Shown piece by piece: positions 22,248 through 30,349 of a stretch of 64,000 nt of DNA. Both the position numbers and the translations under genes were made by a program. The DNA is taken from the sequence record OK272473.1, one strand, 5' to 3'. The stretch comes from Escherichia phage JLBYU31. The notes under the pieces are model-generated. The model did not search any database, was not told the DNA's origin, and was given only the letters and a program-made list of their open reading frames with translations. Position 1 is the stretch's first letter, and each line of letters opens with the position of its first letter.

Positions 22248-24344
22248 TTATCCTTGAACGAACTTGTAAGGCATGTTTGTAATATCTATGCAAGACGCAA
22301 TAATTCCAAGAGATGATTCTACTTTCTGTTTAACGTTTGATGAAACAAATGATGCAAAGTCAACTCTGTCTTCTATTTCAATATCACCTGTCATTGCAAC
22401 CAATTCACCAGTTTCCATTAAATGGTCTCCATCATAGATTACCGATTCGGTGAGCTCTTCCGTAGTCATAACTTCAGCTTGAATGAGTTTTGTATTATTA
22501 GATGTTGTTCCGTCATTATTAGAAGCATCAGTTATTTTATTAACTTTGACCATCAATCCACGCGGTAGAATAACTTCAGCTTCTGTTGCTATTCCGAGAC
22601 TTCCTGGATATACAACATTAACTTTATGAGCTCCATCAATTGCCCATCCTATTTGAACTTTAACGTATTCAGGATTTTCTTTATACGCTCTTATTTCGTT
22701 TGGATTAATAGTTATTCCTTCTTCATTTTTATCAACTGTTAATTCATTGCGAGCTTCTGGTTCTAAAAGACCAATACCAGCATGTGTAATTCCAAAACGT
22801 CCAAAAATGATAGGAGTTAAAGAAGTAGATACAAAATTTCTGAAGTAGAACACTTTATTTTTAACTAACGCTTCATATATAGGAGCAGTCATACTTTGAG
22901 CACGATAAACTGTAATGCCTTCTGGTATACGGTCACCATTTTCAAAAGCTGAATCTAAGTTATTTATAGCAGATTCAATTTCTTTTTCACTCATTACATC
23001 ATATCGTTCTGGATTGTAACGACCTAAAAGAAGATTATTGATGTCAGTATATCCTGAACCGCAATATTCTCTAATGCCATGCTTTTGTGATGGAGTATAT
23101 TTAGAACCATCGCGGGCAATAGTAATATCAATCATTGGACCAGCACCAATTCCAGAAAAACTGTAAATCATTCGTTTGAGGAATTTAGTTTTTGCTGCGT
23201 TCCAGGAATTTTTAGTTATTTCTTCCCAGACTTCATCTGGTTGTCCTTTACGATTTTTATTATGATTAGCAAGCCATTTATCTTTATAATCTTCAAAGAA
23301 TTGATTTATAGCTGCTGCGTATTTCTCTAAACATTTTATTGAAGTAGTTGGTTCATTTTTAATTGCATTAAAAATTACTTCTTTAATTTTTTCTGAAACT
23401 TCACCGACTTGACTCATTGGAAAGAATTTATAATCATAGTGAAGTTCATCTGCCGTTCCTTCAGCAATAATTTTTGCTGCCTTTGTTTTAGAAGCTAATG
23501 AATTAATTCCAATTTTCATTTCTTCTGCTTCGGGAATTAAAGGTGCAGTAGCTGGTTTATTAAAATTAGCTGCTGTAGATTCATACTTCTGGAATAATTC
23601 ACTTTCAAATCTAGAAGATTCCAATGACTGACTTTGTGCAATTGCTCTACGGGAAATTTTAACTTTAACGATTACAGCTTGGTCAGAACGTTTATCGTTT
23701 TCTTGCGCAATAGATGCAGCAATTGCTTCATTTTTGGTTACTTGAGCTCCAGTATCTTTATTAATATAAACATCACCGACCTTCGATTCAACCTTAGTAA
23801 AGAGCTCGGTACTAATTTCCGGAACCCCTGGAATGTCTTCTAGTGATACATTTTTGCGATGTATAAGAATATATGCATACTTTTTATCATAATCCCAGAG
23901 TTCCTTAAGAAGGACGTATCTGCCACCTGAACGACTACGGATAAGTCTATCAGCAATAACTTGAATTTGTCGAGCTTGGCCAGCAGTTTTAGACTTAAGA
24001 ATACGAAGCATACAAGCATCAATTTTATATTGACGCATTGTTTGCATTGCAACAGTAAAAACTGAATTGATATAATTAATTGGGCTTGGACCAAGACCTT
24101 TTAATTTAGCAATTGAACCTTTAGCAGTTAATGTAAAAGGAACAATATGCATCATTTTGTCGCCCATTTTTAAATCACGATTAGTATCACCTCCAGATGT
24201 ATAGGTACATAAACGAAAGCCTGGTTGTTCAATTGCATCATCAACATGAACTGAAAAAATTTGTGGTATTTTCTTCTTTGGATTTAAGTTTGTAATCGGA
24301 AGAGTAGTATCTTCGTCAAATAATTCTGTAATGAGTTCCATCAT
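22248..24344 (-). CDS. alt: Alt ADP-ribosyltransferase (698 aa), head-packaged internal protein
   Basis: N-terminus MELITELFD; R-S-E motifs (VYRAQ, FVSTSL, EAEVILPRG); late promoter immediately upstream; position next to ligase gene. Confidence 0.8.
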   Translation of the reverse strand: MMELITELFDEDTTLPITNLNPKKKIPQIFSVHVDDAIEQPGFRLCTYTSGGDTNRDLKMGDKMMHIVPFTLTAKGSIAKLKGLGPSPINYINSVFTVAMQTMRQYKIDACMLRILKSKTAGQARQIQVIADRLIRSRSGGRYVLLKELWDYDKKYAYILIHRKNVSLEDIPGVPEISTELFTKVESKVGDVYINKDTGAQVTKNEAIAASIAQENDKRSDQAVIVKVKISRRAIAQSQSLESSRFESELFQKYESTAANFNKPATAPLIPEAEEMKIGINSLASKTKAAKIIAEGTADELHYDYKFFPMSQVGEVSEKIKEVIFNAIKNEPTTSIKCLEKYAAAINQFFEDYKDKWLANHNKNRKGQPDEVWEEITKNSWNAAKTKFLKRMIYSFSGIGAGPMIDITIARDGSKYTPSQKHGIREYCGSGYTDINNLLLGRYNPERYDVMSEKEIESAINNLDSAFENGDRIPEGITVYRAQSMTAPIYEALVKNKVFYFRNFVSTSLTPIIFGRFGITHAGIGLLEPEARNELTVDKNEEGITINPNEIRAYKENPEYVKVQIGWAIDGAHKVNVVYPGSLGIATEAEVILPRGLMVKVNKITDASNNDGTTSNNTKLIQAEVMTTEELTESVIYDGDHLMETGELVAMTGDIEIEDRVDFASFVSSNVKQKVESSLGIIASCIDITNMPYKFVQG

Positions 24345-24582: not shown

Positions 24583-26042
24583 AAACCAGTTACCTCATGA
24601 AAATCGCCAAATACATCTTCGAACGTATTAGCTTTAGTTTTATCTTCACGTAAACGAATCGCAATCGGAAGAAATAATTTAACGTAATCAGTGCGACCAT
24701 CAGATTTTAACCAACCGTTGCATTCGCACTCTAGAATTTTTCCAATATAATAATTTTGATTTTCCATAATGCGAGTACGATCAAGTTCATGCGATTTTAC
24801 ACCGGCTTTATCTTTTAAGCCTGAACCAGCATTTACTTTAATTTTTCCACACTCTGATTCAAGAACGAAACCACCTGCTTTAGTAGGGTCTTTACGGTGA
24901 GGATAAATTCCTACAATTTTTAAATCAACATCAATTACTTCTTTAAATTTATAGAGATTTTTTGAACGAGCATTTTCCCATAATCCATCGATATTTTTGA
25001 GAATAATACCTTCAAGACCTTGGTCAATATACTTTTTGTAAATTACCTTAGCTTCATCTAGGTTATTTACTACTTGGTTTTCAATTAAAATTACTTTATC
25101 ATAGCCTGATGTCATTTGTTCTAGTTTAGAAAAACGTACATCATACTTTAAACGAAATGCAGGAAGACCATATATTTCTACTAATGGAACATAATCCCAG
25201 ACCTGAAACTTCATGCATTGTGCTTCTTTTTCGGAAATGGTTCCCTTTAAAGATTTATTAGCGATTCCATTAGAAGTAGTACGTGATTCAGCTACTTCAG
25301 CGAATTCTTTAGCTTTACTAATTTCAGGATAAGCATCAAAAAGAAAATCTAGGACTTCTGGTTCCTTTTCAACTTGCTCATGGTATACCAATTCGCCATC
25401 AATTAACACACCTTCTGGATGAATCTGGCGAGCTTCTGCAGTCATTTTGATTAACTCTTCCTTGAGAAGATCTAATCCTAGATATTCATTACCAGCTCGT
25501 GATAAAAGACGAACATCATCTAATTCATCACCTCTGACTTCGGCAAAGCACCGAGCTCCATCAGCTTTTAATTGGGCAAAGGCTGGAAATTTGATATTCT
25601 TATTAATGCCTTTTTCATCATAAGAACTTGCCAGCATTTGAGGTTGTTCAGGAATTAAACCTGGCCAAACTTTATTTGCAATAGATACTGATGCACCGCA
25701 TTCAAGGTCTCGCATCATCACCCGACGCAAAACTTCAACATCATCTTTTTTACCATCGGTGATGTATCCAGTTAATTCCTCAATCGCCGCATTTCCAGTC
25801 AATTTCCGAGTAGCTAACGTGAATTCAATGAAGTCAAGCATATCGGTAAGAGTCAACATTCCAAAACTCTGGGTAGCAATACCAGGTTTAGGCCATTTCT
25901 TGATATAATACTGTAACCCACGAGAATAAGTCAGACGATATACTCGTTTAAGCAATTCATTATCTTTATTCTTTTCAAGAATTGCTTGCTTCTGCTTAGT
26001 TGAACCAATAGATGCTATTTCGTTCAGAATTTTAAGAATCAT
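24579..26042 (-). CDS. 30: ATP-dependent DNA ligase gp30
   Basis: 487 aa, N-terminus MILKILNEIASIGSTKQKQAILEKNKDNELLKRVY and KADGAR adenylation motif as in T4 DNA ligase. Confidence 0.97.
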   Translation of the reverse strand: MILKILNEIASIGSTKQKQAILEKNKDNELLKRVYRLTYSRGLQYYIKKWPKPGIATQSFGMLTLTDMLDFIEFTLATRKLTGNAAIEELTGYITDGKKDDVEVLRRVMMRDLECGASVSIANKVWPGLIPEQPQMLASSYDEKGINKNIKFPAFAQLKADGARCFAEVRGDELDDVRLLSRAGNEYLGLDLLKEELIKMTAEARQIHPEGVLIDGELVYHEQVEKEPEVLDFLFDAYPEISKAKEFAEVAESRTTSNGIANKSLKGTISEKEAQCMKFQVWDYVPLVEIYGLPAFRLKYDVRFSKLEQMTSGYDKVILIENQVVNNLDEAKVIYKKYIDQGLEGIILKNIDGLWENARSKNLYKFKEVIDVDLKIVGIYPHRKDPTKAGGFVLESECGKIKVNAGSGLKDKAGVKSHELDRTRIMENQNYYIGKILECECNGWLKSDGRTDYVKLFLPIAIRLREDKTKANTFEDVFGDFHEVTGL

Positions 26043-26308
26043 TGTTCATCCTTTAGAGTTTGGTTTACAGCTCTATTATAAATCAATTCATCATTAAGCT
26101 CAGTCAAAGACCTGTGGTACGTTGTTCTAACTTTATTTCCTTGCATCCAGTGCTTGACGTAAATGAAACCTTGCTCTACACATTTTTTAAAAATTCGTTC
26201 GTCTTTTTGAGCTCGGAATTCTGGATTGCATCTAAAAAATTGATTTACGTGACCGTAATCACGTGTAGTATTACCTTCATTTTCATAAATAGTGTGAACG
26301 ACAAACAT
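26039..26308 (-). CDS. hypothetical protein (89 aa)
   Basis: ORF with ATG, ATGA-coupled to ligase. Confidence 0.6.
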   Translation of the reverse strand: MFVVHTIYENEGNTTRDYGHVNQFFRCNPEFRAQKDERIFKKCVEQGFIYVKHWMQGNKVRTTYHRSLTELNDELIYNRAVNQTLKDEQ

Positions 26309-27144
26309 TAGAATGCTCCTTGGAAAATATTATCACCACTAGTAGGTCTATTATACAAATACTCTATGCCACCGGGTTTAATATAGTTCCATGTCTGAAA
26401 CGGATGCGTCTGATATGGATGATATGGATTATAAGGATTAAATCCAGGAGTTCTCCAGGTAGTATTCCAACGAAAAGAATCGTTTTTAATCATCTTCTCG
26501 ATTGCATCTTTTATAGCTTTTTCACTATCAAAACTTTCTTTATTTTCCTTCGATGGAAAAAGCTTATTCTCTACATCATTCCATGTATAAACTCGCTGTG
26601 CAGTTTTTGGAATACTGTCACGCTCCCCTCGAGCCATCCAATAAACAGGAACATTTAATATTTCACTCGCGTGATCGCAATGGTGAGCGAGATCGTCAAT
26701 ATAACAAATTACGTTATATTTCTCTTTTGCCTTTTTGAACAACTCTTCTTTTGAAGAATCATGACCACACATCAATACTTCTGAGAAGGCACCAGGAAAA
26801 AGAGCATTCAAATTAAATTGACGATTCAGCAGAGCGTCAATAGAATCACCCAATGCTGTAACAGCTACAAAATTATAATCTTCTTTTAATTTATTAATTA
26901 CACACAGGGCATCTTTATATGGAGACAAGTAACGAATAAAATCTGAACGATTGTATTTTTCAATTAACTTGACGCCAAGTTCTTCATCACAATTAAAAAG
27001 TTTACCTGGAGAAATAAATTTCTCATCTTGGATCATTTTTAAAATATGTTCCAACGGAAGATTATATTTCTGGGCAAAATAAGGAAGTCCTGATTGCCAG
27101 CTTAAACATACTCCATCAATATCAGTTAAAATAGTAGGCTTCAT
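26308..27144 (-). CDS. HAD-like hydrolase (278 aa), possible nucleotidase/phosphatase
   Basis: N-terminal motif ILTDIDGV (DxDG(T/V)) and downstream YIDD; Pro/Tyr-rich C-terminus. Confidence 0.55.
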   Translation of the reverse strand: MKPTILTDIDGVCLSWQSGLPYFAQKYNLPLEHILKMIQDEKFISPGKLFNCDEELGVKLIEKYNRSDFIRYLSPYKDALCVINKLKEDYNFVAVTALGDSIDALLNRQFNLNALFPGAFSEVLMCGHDSSKEELFKKAKEKYNVICYIDDLAHHCDHASEILNVPVYWMARGERDSIPKTAQRVYTWNDVENKLFPSKENKESFDSEKAIKDAIEKMIKNDSFRWNTTWRTPGFNPYNPYHPYQTHPFQTWNYIKPGGIEYLYNRPTSGDNIFQGAF

Positions 27145-27599
27145 AGAGAGTCTCTTAATAGGTTTAACACATCAATAAATTCAGCTTCGGTTAGTATTGT
27201 ATCATCTTTTGTTAGACCACTAGCCATGCTGTGCTTCAAAACTTTTCCTTTCGAGGCTAGTAATGCATCACGAAAGCCCTTGTTTTGAATCGCTGCTTCA
27301 AAATATGCATTTGTGTATAATTCTTTCCACGCCGGGGAGTATCTTGAAAACGGAACTCCGAGCCAGAAGAGGGTCCCACGGTCCTGAGCTCTTGCATAAG
27401 ACCTTCCAGCTTGCTGTGCGGCAAGCCCGGATAACCCAAATATACGACGTTGTTGTTCAACATTTTTCACCTTACACCCTTGGAGGAATCCTTCGAGACC
27501 TCCAAATTGAATACCATCCATGACGAAAGACCATTGGGCGAAATTACTTAATGCACATGATGGCCACCTAAAATTGCTTCTAATCTCTAACTCAGACAT
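27141..27599 (-). CDS. NADAR/YbiA-like (DUF1768-type) protein (152 aa)
   Basis: Motifs LSNFAQW and GLEGFLQGCK resemble YbiA FSNFAAW / SEHYFQAQK; track ORF started at TTG, first ATG at 27599. Confidence 0.5.
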   Translation of the reverse strand: MSELEIRSNFRWPSCALSNFAQWSFVMDGIQFGGLEGFLQGCKVKNVEQQRRIFGLSGLAAQQAGRSYARAQDRGTLFWLGVPFSRYSPAWKELYTNAYFEAAIQNKGFRDALLASKGKVLKHSMASGLTKDDTILTEAEFIDVLNLLRDSL

Positions 27600-27798
27600 T
27601 TTCAATGCTTATAATTTCAACATCAGCCCAATGACCATAGCAAGGAAGACGAAATTCAACTGGCCAGTTAGGGTCCTTTTCTAATATAATAGACTTAACT
27701 TGTGGTTCTTCATGTTCATCAGTATATGGATTTTTATCTGTTACTTTATATGTGACCTTAATGTACTGAATTCCAAAAATCTTATTAATTATGTTCAT
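27592..27798 (-). CDS. hypothetical protein (68 aa)
   Basis: ORF with ATG. Confidence 0.5.
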   Translation of the reverse strand: MNIINKIFGIQYIKVTYKVTDKNPYTDEHEEPQVKSIILEKDPNWPVEFRLPCYGHWADVEIISIENV

Positions 27799-27992
27799 AC
27801 TAATTCCTTTAATCCGTAAATAGGAGATAATTCATCACCCATGCGAAGGTCTTCATTTCCATCTACCCAGGAAACAATATAAGCCTCTTTTATTTGAATA
27901 CCACTCCATTTAAATGGAGGTAGAACCTTAGAAATTAATCCAGGTATACCAACTCCCTTTAATTCAACAGTTTGACCTAAAAAGAATTTCAT
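27795..27992 (-). CDS. hypothetical protein (65 aa)
   Basis: ORF with ATG, ATGA coupling. Confidence 0.5.
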   Translation of the reverse strand: MKFFLGQTVELKGVGIPGLISKVLPPFKWSGIQIKEAYIVSWVDGNEDLRMGDELSPIYGLKELV

Positions 27993-28279
27993 TAGAACCT
28001 CATCTGAAAACCGTGCGATTTAACATTACCGCCACCAATATCAGAGATATTAATTTCGCGCGCAATTGAAGGGTCAATGTCAATTTCACGATTGAGTTTA
28101 GTGATAGCTAAAGTATCGCGCCCATTTACAGTACGAAACTCTAAAGGACAAACCACATCAACGTAGTTTTTAATCGATTCGCTAGTAGGTTGCAAATGTG
28201 CAGGAAGGTCTTTAGGCGCCTTTGAGAAAACTACTTCGCAGAAGTTTTTACGGGTATCAAAATAAGTAGTCATAAACAT
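27992..28279 (-). CDS. hypothetical protein (95 aa)
   Basis: Track ORF begins at TTG 28330; first ATG at 28279 follows SD GAGGAA and lies downstream of an intergenic hairpin. Confidence 0.5.
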   Translation of the reverse strand: MFMTTYFDTRKNFCEVVFSKAPKDLPAHLQPTSESIKNYVDVVCPLEFRTVNGRDTLAITKLNREIDIDPSIAREINISDIGGGNVKSHGFQMRF

Positions 28280-28296
28280 AACATTTTCCTCAGTAA

Positions 28297-28310
28297 GGGG
28301 CCAAAGCCCC
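28297..28310 (-). other. intercistronic hairpin GGGGC-UUUG-GCCCC
   Basis: GC stem-loop between the stop at 28320 and the SD of the next ORF; no U-run. Confidence 0.45.
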
Positions 28311-28319
28311 TCATTTATT

Positions 28320-28685
28320 TTAAATATCAAATTCGTTAAGAACTACATCAAAGATTGCTTCAAGATGCTCAGGTTTAGCTCTGTTACTCAGAATATGACG
28401 AATCCAAGTTTTAACCAAAAGCTTGCGATTAACGCCATTCCAGCAAGGATGAGTCCCTAAATCGCGTTCACGGAAATCATCATCCAGAGCGATTTTAAAG
28501 TTGGAACCTTCCATCGTGATTGAAACCGTGATACCGTTTTCAAATCGCATATAAACGTAATTAGGAGTCATATACTGTTCAATTTCGCATACTGAACCAT
28601 TTTGATGTTTCCAGAGGCAAATAGTATCAATAGAACCTGCAATACCATTAGAAACATATTTACGTTCAAAGTTGATGTAGTTCAT
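28320..28685 (-). CDS. hypothetical protein (121 aa)
   Basis: Track start is TTG 28697; first ATG 28685 preceded by GGAG. Confidence 0.55.
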   Translation of the reverse strand: MNYINFERKYVSNGIAGSIDTICLWKHQNGSVCEIEQYMTPNYVYMRFENGITVSITMEGSNFKIALDDDFRERDLGTHPCWNGVNRKLLVKTWIRHILSNRAKPEHLEAIFDVVLNEFDI

Positions 28686-28721
28686 TTTATTCTCCAAGAT
28701 GTTTAATTGCGGTACAGGTAT

Positions 28722-28750
28722 ATAATATCATATCCTGTACCAAAGTAAAC
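28722..28750 (-). promoter_or_regulatory. early promoter GTTTAC-N17-TATTAT (TGa extended -10), embedded in 8-bp inverted repeat GGTACAGG/CCTGTACC
   Basis: Read on minus strand upstream of the ORF starting at 28685. Confidence 0.5.
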
Positions 28751-28752
28751 AA

Positions 28753-29085
28753 TTATTTTACTACTTTCCAATGCTGCATGTCAAGTTTACCAACTTTTTT
28801 CATCTTCTCAATTAAGCGTTCGGCACGTTGGCGAGCTGTAACATAATACCATTCACCTAATTCATTTTGTTCAATTTTTCCAACGATTACTGTATTCAAT
28901 TCATAAATCCAACCAGTAAAGAAATTATGAACTTGAATTGTAAAGGTGAAATCTGTTCCCATACCTTCTGTTGTTTCTACTTCAATAATATCACCTTCAA
29001 CTGCCATTAAGAACCACATAGTTTCATCATATTTACCATTGAAGCATTTAGTTTTAACTGTAGCGTTCAGATTAATCGTTTTCAT
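28753..29085 (-). CDS. hypothetical protein (110 aa)
   Basis: ATG with SD AAGGAGAAT. Confidence 0.6.
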   Translation of the reverse strand: MKTINLNATVKTKCFNGKYDETMWFLMAVEGDIIEVETTEGMGTDFTFTIQVHNFFTGWIYELNTVIVGKIEQNELGEWYYVTARQRAERLIEKMKKVGKLDMQHWKVVK

Positions 29086-29112
29086 TTTATTCTCCTTTGT
29101 TTGTGTAAGATA

Positions 29113-29142
29113 ATACTATCACAAAGGAACCATACTGTAAAC
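29113..29142 (-). promoter_or_regulatory. early promoter GTTTAC-N18-TAGTAT (TGa extended -10)
   Basis: Located between the terminator at 29161-29190 and the ORF start at 29085. Confidence 0.5.
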
Positions 29143-29160
29143 AACTTTATGCAATCTTTG

Positions 29161-29190
29161 GAAAATAAAAAAGGACTCCCGAAGGAGTCC
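29161..29190 (-). terminator. hairpin GGACUCC-UUCG-GGAGUCC followed by UUUUUUAUUUU
   Basis: 7-bp GC stem with UUCG loop and long U-run on minus strand, 6 nt after the stop of the basic-protein ORF. Confidence 0.8.
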
Positions 29191-29195
29191 TCAAC

Positions 29196-29372
29196 TTATG
29201 CTTTCTGCTTACCAAAACGAGAAGCATCATCTCGAAGAACCGCACGTGCTCGGCGCATGATCTTCTCAACAGTTTGATTGATACGAGAGTTCGACCCACG
29301 CTTGTAGCCAGCGCGTTTAGAATCACCAACTTTCTTTTCAACTGCTTTCTTTGCTTTAGCTTGTTTTGCCAT
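29196..29372 (-). CDS. small basic protein (58 aa; K/R-rich)
   Basis: ORF MAKQAKAKKAVEKKVG..; second ATG chosen because of SD AAGAGAA; first ATG at 29414 also possible. Confidence 0.5.
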   Translation of the reverse strand: MAKQAKAKKAVEKKVGDSKRAGYKRGSNSRINQTVEKIMRRARAVLRDDASRFGKQKA

Positions 29373-29617
29373 TATAAATTCTCTTTTAAATGAAAATGCA
29401 GGACTTATTGGCATTGCCTGCGCAAGCCCTCAAGGGGAACATAGGTTTTTGGATATTTAACGACCAGGATAACCATAAACCCGTCATCATTCACATTCAA
29501 GAGGTACACCATAAAACTGCCGGGGTCTTAAAACTATAATGATTCGCAAATCATTAATCAGACAGTTCGACGGCTCCTCGATTTTAGCTCACACTAAGGC
29601 AGTGAATCTCCAATAAA

Positions 29618-29866
29618 TTACTTCAGTGTTACCACAAAGTGACGAACTGCTTTTCGTGCAGCAGAAGCCAGAGGCTTAGCATATTTAAGTTCATCTTTTT
29701 CCTGAAGCTCAGCAGCTAATGCAGTTTGAGCAGGATTCAGATGTTTGAAATAACGCAGGATTTCAAGAGCTTCGGCTTCAACATCAATAGATGCGCCATA
29801 GTTTTCGTGACCATTATTCCATGCGTTTCGTTGCAGTTCAAGAGCGTGTTGTAATTGTTTAATCAT
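29618..29866 (-). CDS. rIII: rIII lysis-inhibition accessory protein
   Basis: 82-aa ORF (same length as T4 RIII), position between gene 31 and the ligase island. Confidence 0.8.
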   Translation of the reverse strand: MIKQLQHALELQRNAWNNGHENYGASIDVEAEALEILRYFKHLNPAQTALAAELQEKDELKYAKPLASAARKAVRHFVVTLK

Positions 29867-30013
29867 TTAAAAATTCTCGTTAGAGATTAAAACTCGGTAG
29901 TCACGTTCTTCTGAATTTCATCTTCTTTCGACAGATCTCTCAGTTGTAGACTACCACATAGAATTGTTCGGTTAACTTATTATTCCGACACCCAATTCAT
30001 ATTATTATTTATA

Positions 30014-30349
30014 TCACTTATAAAGACACGGAATAGCTTTATAGTGACAAGTAACGAATTTTTGTTTAATTTCTTTTGGCTGCTTAAGACCCAGAGCTAC
30101 AAAAGGATGCGGAACATTTCGAATTTGACCAACTGGAAGAGAAGTCAAATCACCAACTTCGCAGAAACCTTCAGGAACATCAGGACCGACAGAGTGAACT
30201 ACACATAGTTCAGGAACTTCACCTTGAACACGTTTACCGATAATAAGTCCTGATTCTGTAACTTCTTCATCACCGGCTTGTGCAGGTTCAGAAACTAAAA
30301 TAACATATTCACCGACAGCACGAATTGGTAGCTGTTGTACTTCAGACAT
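30014..30349 (-). CDS. 31: GroES-like co-chaperonin gp31
   Basis: 111-aa ORF (same length as T4 gp31), N-terminus MSEVQQLPI; T4 position. Confidence 0.9.

Follow-up and report, generated by a model that had tools for sequence, protein, structure and literature searches.

The adfN (gene 30.3) allele of Escherichia phage JLBYU31: a predicted NADAR enzyme for the removal of ADP-ribose from guanine

What is the function of a small open reading frame (ORF) located between the DNA ligase gene and rIII of a T4-like phage, and does its product work together with that of the neighboring HAD-like gene? The question is raised by a stretch of 64,000 nucleotides from Escherichia phage JLBYU31 (OK272473.1), referred to here as the window, in which positions 27141 to 27599 on the minus strand encode a protein of 152 amino acids. 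A preliminary description of this DNA, prepared from the sequence alone, had likened the protein to members of the YbiA/DUF1768 (NADAR) fold and had proposed that it removes ADP-ribose either as an anti-defense function or in self-regulation. The analysis presented here indicates that the ORF is very probably the adfN (gene 30.3) allele of a T4-like Tequatrovirus, and that it would act by removing ADP-ribose from guanines in the phage DNA. Provided for the window are the identity of adfN, its synteny, its fold, the conservation of its catalytic residues, and the intactness of its reading frame. The anti-DarTG1 function of the gene has already been published for the nearly identical gene of T4, and the finding in the window is a correct rediscovery rather than a new one.

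The protein encoded in the window is identical to gp30.3 of T4 (NP_049816) in 149 of 152 residues (98%). It matches the Pfam family PF08010 (Phage_30_3) along the entire profile (positions 1-138 of 138) with an expectation value (E) of 5e-70 and a score of 234 bits against a cut-off of 36 bits, whereas no match to the ORF was found in NCBIfam or PADLOC. The reading frame opens with an ATG at 27599 and closes with a TGA at 27143-27141. In the program-made list of ORFs it begins two codons earlier, with a TTG at 27605, and encodes 154 amino acids. The ATG at 27599 is taken as the likely start, in agreement with both the T4 annotation (152 amino acids) and the published residue numbering. On one side of adfN, all on the minus strand, lie alt (698 amino acids), alt.1, gene 30 (the DNA ligase, 487 amino acids), 30.1 (DUF3045), and 30.2 (278 amino acids), and on the other are found 30.4 to 30.9, followed by rIII, gene 31, and cd. 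The arrangement is that of phage T4 (NC_000866), and the run of small ORFs between ligase and rIII to which the preliminary description could assign no function corresponds to T4 30.1-30.9. The DNA from 26000 to 28400 is 99.5% identical to that of Yersinia phage phiD1 and ∼98% identical to that of RB3-type T4-like phages. On the basis of the gene order and these DNA identities, the window belongs to a Tequatrovirus. A scan of positions 25900-30100 for promoters and terminators was uninformative, with counts not above those of shuffled sequence.

A database search with the window protein yielded 114 homologues, and residue conservation was evaluated from an alignment of 55 full-length homologues displaying 35-86% identity (alignment A1). 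Both motifs singled out in the preliminary description are indeed present. The first, LSNFAQW, is formed by residues 17-23 (27531-27551, minus strand), and its Leu 17, Ser 18, Asn 19, and Phe 20 are invariant among the 55 homologues. The second, GLEGFLQGCK, spans residues 34-43 (27471-27500, minus strand) and contains the catalytic residues Glu 36 (E36; 27492-27494) and Lys 43 (K43; 27471-27473), the former found in 55 of 55 homologues and the latter in 54. Gly 37, Phe 38, and Gln 40 of this helix motif are likewise invariant. A third putative catalytic residue, His 123 (H123; codon at 27231-27233, minus strand), occurs in all 55 homologues and is positioned at the last β-strand of the AlphaFold2 model (residues 120-122/123). 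The C-terminal helix (residues 138-152, 27144-27188, minus strand), modeled as helical from residue 138 to 151, is intact in the window.

Gene 30.3 of T4 was recently renamed adfN, for anti-DarT factor NADAR (PMC11825919, Nat Commun 2025). In that investigation, all of the chimeras of RB69 with T2 or with T4 that were selected on DarTG1 had gained the 3' part of 30.3, T2 and T4 phages with adfN deleted formed no plaques on DarTG1 hosts, and RB69 was fully rescued by ectopic AdfN (PMC11825919). AdfN is both required and sufficient for T-even phages to resist DarTG1 (PMC11825919, PMC11125620). The purified enzyme de-ADP-ribosylates DNA, and the E36A and K43A substitutions and a C-terminal truncation each impair T4 AdfN; DarTG2 is not countered (PMC11825919). 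To the knowledge of its authors, no antitoxin homologue serving counter-defense had been found in a lytic phage before AdfN (PMC11825919). In a second study, all of the NADARs tested, including a phage protein listed as T4 gp30.3, removed ADP-ribose from guanine in vitro but not from thymine (PMC11125620, Toxins 2024). A transposon screen of T4 (HIDEN-SEQ) independently confirmed 30.3 as conditionally essential on DarTG1 (bioRxiv 10.1101/2025.11.20.689424). In the rows of its supplementary sheet used here, insertions in 30.3 fell from 261.0 to 0.7 mean reads on the DarTG1 host (log2 fold change -7.25, adjusted p 0; bioRxiv 10.1101/2025.11.20.689424). Note that this sheet is taken as the DarTG1 comparison because of its position in the file and the agreement of its 30.3 result with the main text, and that the rows used are two parts of it, running alphabetically from gene 26 to rnlA. 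The removal of ADP-ribose from DarT-modified guanine as an anti-defense activity, proposed at the outset for the window protein, has therefore been demonstrated for T4 AdfN in these three investigations. The methods section of the second study gives the T4 gp30.3 construct as residues 1-208, though T4 30.3 encodes 152 amino acids (PMC11125620). The tested protein may have been taken from another record or may include an extension; some homologues in the database are ∼201 amino acids in length (P0026, P0031).

In the mechanism envisaged, the DarT1 toxin of a DarTG1 host would ADP-ribosylate guanines in the infecting phage DNA and so block its replication. AdfN, a relative of the DarG1 antitoxin and a small NADAR enzyme of one domain, would hydrolyze the bond between guanine and ADP-ribose and restore the DNA, and could be regarded as an "orphan antitoxin" borne by the phage. 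Its catalytic center would be formed by E36 and K43 on the EGFLQxxK helix and by H123 on the last strand, with full activity predicted to depend on the C-terminal helix (residues 138-151).

Several observations weigh against this interpretation. By itself, the gp30.3 sequence of the window does not match the Pfam NADAR family (PF08719) even at E ≤ 1, and a single-sequence search of the PDB sequences likewise gave no NADAR match. The data for DarTG1 resistance are those of the T4 and T2 alleles. The E36A and K43A variants of T4 AdfN retain partial rescue (PMC11825919). Finally, T4 AdfN gives uninfected cells no protection from DarT1 (PMC11825919, PMC11125620), and it rescues T5 and Bas25 only slightly (PMC11825919). 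The failure in uninfected cells and the weak rescue of T5 and Bas25 imply that the picture of an enzyme acting alone is incomplete and lacks a factor or context specific to T-even phages.

With regard to the fold, the NADAR assignment of the preliminary description, which is not borne out by the single sequence, holds at the level of the family. PF08719 is matched by 22 of the 55 gp30.3 homologues, with a best E of 1.5e-7, and several of the 114 homologues are named "YbiA (DUF1768 family)" by JGI, one of them with a precomputed PF08719 match. When the A1 profile was compared with all PDB sequences, the top match was Escherichia coli YbiA (2b3w), with an E of 0.0045. In the resulting alignment LSNFA is paired with FSNFAAW and EGFLQSLK with SEHYFQAQK of YbiA, such that E36 and K43 fall on the E and the K of the latter motif (an E-x3-Q-x2-K helix). 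The YbiA motifs had been cited correctly in the preliminary description and align to exactly the positions that it had matched with them. The AlphaFold2 model of gp30.3 built on A1 is of high confidence (mean predicted local distance difference test score (pLDDT) of 93.3, predicted template modeling score of 0.89), and its fold is clearly that of a NADAR protein rather than an unrelated one. Given that the family-level and structural tests are positive, the assignment of the NADAR/YbiA fold to gp30.3 is firm. The only match in the single-sequence search of the PDB, an ATP pyrophosphatase with an E of 0.35, was at chance level and was discarded.

The gp30.3 proteins have been described as the phage branch of the NADAR superfamily, with the last-strand residue being a histidine in the gp30.3 group, a glutamate in YbiA, and an aspartate in the DarT1-linked NADARs/BC4488 family (PMC11125620). 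By that definition, the invariant H123 makes the window protein a member of the phage gp30.3 subgroup. It belongs to a Pfam family (PF08010) separate from that of E. coli YbiA (PDB 2b3w) and the Phytophthora NADAR (PDB 8bau), which are assigned to PF08719, have the last-strand glutamate, and are ∼20% identical to it. DarG1 (the Geobacter lovleyi NADAR, PDB 8bat; BC4488 family), with the last-strand aspartate, shows 15% identity. The DarG1 gene lies beside that of the toxin, and its product protects uninfected cells, whereas AdfN, encoded as an orphan in a lytic phage, provides no such protection. A riboflavin-pathway role has been assigned in the literature to some NADARs (PMC11825919), and gp30.3 might by analogy with YbiA serve as an N-glycosidase acting on intermediates of that pathway rather than on DNA. 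The glutamate of YbiA is, however, replaced by an invariant histidine, the DarTG1 phenotype and the in vitro activity on DNA are direct, and no phenotype is observed without DarTG1. There is scarcely any likelihood of a metabolic role of this kind.

The partial rescue by the E36A and K43A variants would be in keeping with a different mode of action, in which AdfN blocks DarT1 by binding, as the small protein AdfA does, rather than by catalysis. Another phage NADAR has, in addition, been cited as independent of enzymatic activity (PMC11825919). Yet no association between AdfN and DarT1 was detected in a bacterial two-hybrid assay (PMC11825919), the catalytic mutants and the truncated protein are impaired, and the purified enzyme removes the mark. 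Furthermore, the catalytic residues are essentially invariant across the 55 diverse homologues. Next to no probability is accordingly given to inhibition by binding, and a catalytic AdfN is the preferred explanation.

As for the allele itself, window and T4 adfN have in common the same flanking genes, the overlapping start and stop codons, E36, K43, and H123, and the C-terminal helix. They differ in P24S, Q114L, and I125M and in the length of the internal ORF 30.3', which is shorter in the window. All three substitutions occur at variable columns and introduce residues seen in homologues. At column 114 leucine is the most common residue, at column 125 methionine is about as common as isoleucine, and at column 24 serine is in the minority (2 of 55). 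The window allele would be expected to behave like T4 AdfN. The DarTG1 sensitivity of RB69 has been attributed to the insertion of a T at position 411 of 30.3 (PMC11825919). Sequence comparison reproduces this insertion: RB69 30.3 contains an extra T after nucleotide 410 and terminates after residue 137 (...DDTILT, then a stop). The window gene is without such an insertion and reads through to residue 152. There is a strong case that the phage would resist DarTG1 through adfN.

The untranslated 3' end of RB69 30.3 (L013, 10215-10270) shows one mismatch in ∼48 nucleotides to window positions 27141-27190, and from this near-identity the inactivation of RB69 adfN looks recent. Loss of the gene may have occurred elsewhere as well. 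In several short database proteins (P0014-P0016, P0068, P0106), a portion of Phage_30_3 is joined to portions of other families (PF06919 (Gp30_7), PF11097, PF06019 (Phage_30_8), and PF26911), a pattern suggesting that adfN has been destroyed by deletion or fusion in some T4-like phages. If so, these phages could be naturally sensitive to DarTG1, like RB69.

The internal ORF, 30.3', is annotated in T4 and lies out of frame within 30.3 (27257-27463, minus strand). It encodes 68 amino acids in the window as compared to 75 in T4, and the two versions are 93% identical. Relative to T4, five changes in the overlap are silent in 30.3, and every one of them is non-synonymous in 30.3'. In addition, the Q114L change of 30.3 creates a stop at codon 69 of 30.3'. 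The substitution pattern shows no coding constraint on 30.3', and it was rejected as a true overlapping gene. With its frame apparently unconstrained, 30.3' is unlikely to be a real gene.

The possibility that gp30.3 acts within the phage's own physiology was also considered. T4 carries three ADP-ribosyltransferases, Alt, ModA, and ModB, and in the window alt (22248-24344, minus strand) is located 3 kb from adfN. According to the self-regulation idea of the preliminary description, gp30.3 would reverse or tune the ADP-ribosylation performed by these enzymes. The Alt and Mod enzymes, however, modify arginines in proteins. The NADARs tested to date act on guanine-ADP-ribose in DNA and not on thymine-ADP-ribose (PMC11125620). 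Moreover, 30.3 can be dispensed with when DarTG1 is absent, insertions being found at 27 of its 28 TA sites, and alt, modA, and modB were without interaction in the DarTG1 screen (bioRxiv 10.1101/2025.11.20.689424). The guanine specificity of the NADARs and the dispensability of 30.3 render self-regulation extremely improbable. The Alt protein is 698 amino acids long both in the window and in another T4-like contig (L008), and 682 in T4.

The stop codon of adfN overlaps the start of gene 30.2 by four nucleotides (ATGA). Gene 30.2 (26308-27144, minus strand) encodes a putative HAD-fold phosphatase of 278 amino acids with a disordered C-terminal tail. The preliminary description had placed it upstream of adfN, which is correct in plus-strand coordinates only. 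As the minus strand carries both genes, 30.2 is transcriptionally downstream of 30.3. The protein begins MKPTILTDIDGV and is 97% identical to T4 gp30.2. All four HAD motifs are retained (D8-x-D10-G-V, T96, K132, D150-D151), with Asp 8, Asp 10, Gly 11, Lys 132, Asp 150, and Asp 151 invariant in 40 homologues and Thr 96 present in 39 of them. Here again the profile evidence is found in the family and not in the single sequence. By itself, window gp30.2 has no Pfam match of any kind and no HAD match at E ≤ 1, whereas 11 of the 40 homologues match PF00702 and 8 match NT5C, all weakly (best E of 1e-4). The best PDB sequence match of the family profile is a 5'(3')-deoxyribonucleotidase (2jao), with an E of 0.008.

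The AlphaFold2 model of gp30.2 has pLDDT values above 90 over approximately residues 1-190. In a Foldseek search, the best 50 of 100 PDB matches (E ≤ 0.001, listed down to E 6e-8) were all members of the HAD superfamily or engineered enzymes of the same fold, and the best template modeling scores, normalized by target length, were 0.63-0.69, to deoxyribonucleotidases. With these enzymes (the NT5C family; 2jao, 2i7d) gp30.2 has in common the HAD Rossmannoid fold and the DxDxV/T/K/DD motifs, at an identity of only ∼17% and the marginal E given above, and it differs from them in possessing an additional, disordered tail of ∼80 amino acids. This tail (26308-26540, minus strand) is of low model confidence, is rich in proline, asparagine, and aromatic residues (…WNTTWRTPGFNPYNPYHPYQTHPFQTWNY…), and is missing from many homologues (family lengths of 196-316 amino acids). 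The HAD-like character noticed in the preliminary description is thereby confirmed for gp30.2 at the level of the modeled fold and the motifs, with its phosphatase role being putative. No published function for gp30.2 was found in the literature.

Could gp30.3 and gp30.2 constitute a two-enzyme module, in which the NADAR protein frees ADP-ribose, or leaves a phosphoribosyl remnant, that the HAD phosphatase then processes? In such a scheme, gp30.2 would be the missing factor of T-even phages on which AdfN depends. The ATGA overlap of the two genes, the full HAD motif set and nucleotidase-like fold of gp30.2, and the wide distribution of both genes in Straboviridae (1510 phage records with gp30.3 and 1439 with gp30.2) are in its favor, as is the dependence of AdfN on a further T-even factor. 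In the rows of the transposon screen used here, however, T4 30.2 insertions were neutral on DarTG1 (log2 fold change -0.12, p 0.61), whereas those in 30.3 were wiped out (bioRxiv 10.1101/2025.11.20.689424). Nor is the adjacency conserved. The gp30.3 homologues of Vibrio phage KVP40, Klebsiella phage Roth20, and Aeromonas phage phiAS4 have no annotated 30.2-like gene beside them, and in two metagenomic phage contigs the ORFs beside distant gp30.3 homologues are unlike gp30.2 (hhalign probability <1%). In addition, purified AdfN alone de-ADP-ribosylates DNA. The module has already been largely refuted by the transposon screen and is very unlikely. A conserved 30.2-30.3 gene pair was rejected in view of the neutral 30.2 insertions and the adjacency lost in distant phages, and the functional pairing suggested in the preliminary description is not sustained. 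There is no sign of a joint function, and gp30.2 is not considered part of the AdfN mechanism.

The dependence of AdfN on a T-even background nevertheless calls for an explanation. The DNA modifications of T4 have been ruled out as its cause, and the authors propose that a T-even protein is required for AdfN activity (PMC11825919). A possible candidate is encoded by gene 30.4 (27592-27798, minus strand; 68 amino acids, phrog_2042, a family without an assigned function), which lies upstream of adfN and whose stop overlaps the adfN start by eight nucleotides (ATGTCTGA), an arrangement that suggests translational coupling. In the transposon data, T4 30.4 insertions decreased on DarTG1 from 375.9 to 108.0 reads (log2 fold change -1.79, p 1e-4, adjusted p 0.014), and within the rows from gene 26 to rnlA, 30.4 is the sole significant gene besides 30.3 (bioRxiv 10.1101/2025.11.20.689424). 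This partial depletion is not mentioned in the preprint (bioRxiv 10.1101/2025.11.20.689424). RB69, in which ectopic AdfN is effective, carries gp30.4 (51% identical). To our knowledge T5, Bas25, and uninfected E. coli, in which AdfN performs poorly, would not be expected to carry it. On the other hand, gp30.4 is detectable in 720 phage records as compared to 1510 for gp30.3, and it was rejected as a universal partner of AdfN when a T4-like metagenomic contig with a 58%-identical AdfN was found to have an unrelated upstream ORF. It is unlikely that 30.4 is the T-even helper required by AdfN. Given the overlap of the 30.4 stop with the adfN start, the simplest and more likely explanation of the depletion is a polar effect, namely reduced translation of the coupled adfN.

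Two distant relatives of AdfN are found in other genomic settings. In Klebsiella phage Roth20 (PQ657793.1; L011, 2501-2950), a 42%-identical homologue sits within a cluster of transfer RNA genes, away from the ligase gene, and is annotated as "anti-CBASS protein acb1." Given that acb1 of T4 is gene 57B, this label looks like a misannotation. A gp30.3-like NADAR of 38% identity occurs in a jumbo-phage-like metagenomic contig of 308 kb (L002, 5001-10300). A NUDIX hydrolase and a Thg1-like gene lie a few genes away, and the neighborhood may be related to NAD or ADP-ribose.

AdfN is one of several T4 counter-defenses against DarTG systems, among them AdfM (the tk.4 macrodomain) and AdfA (gp61.2). 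AdfM is, like AdfN, antitoxin-like and has been proposed to remove ADP-ribose enzymatically (bioRxiv 10.1101/2025.11.20.689424). Its fold, unlike that of AdfN, is a macrodomain, and the system that it counters is DarTG2, by which thymidine is modified. AdfA differs from AdfN in that it is thought to neutralize DarT1 by binding. AdfN explains the DarTG1 resistance of almost all T-even phages. The window allele can be labeled adfN and predicted to be functional, and the phage carrying it should be resistant to DarTG1. The practical value of the assignment lies in annotation: T4 and most of the ∼1500 phage records with gp30.3 still list the gene product as a "hypothetical protein."

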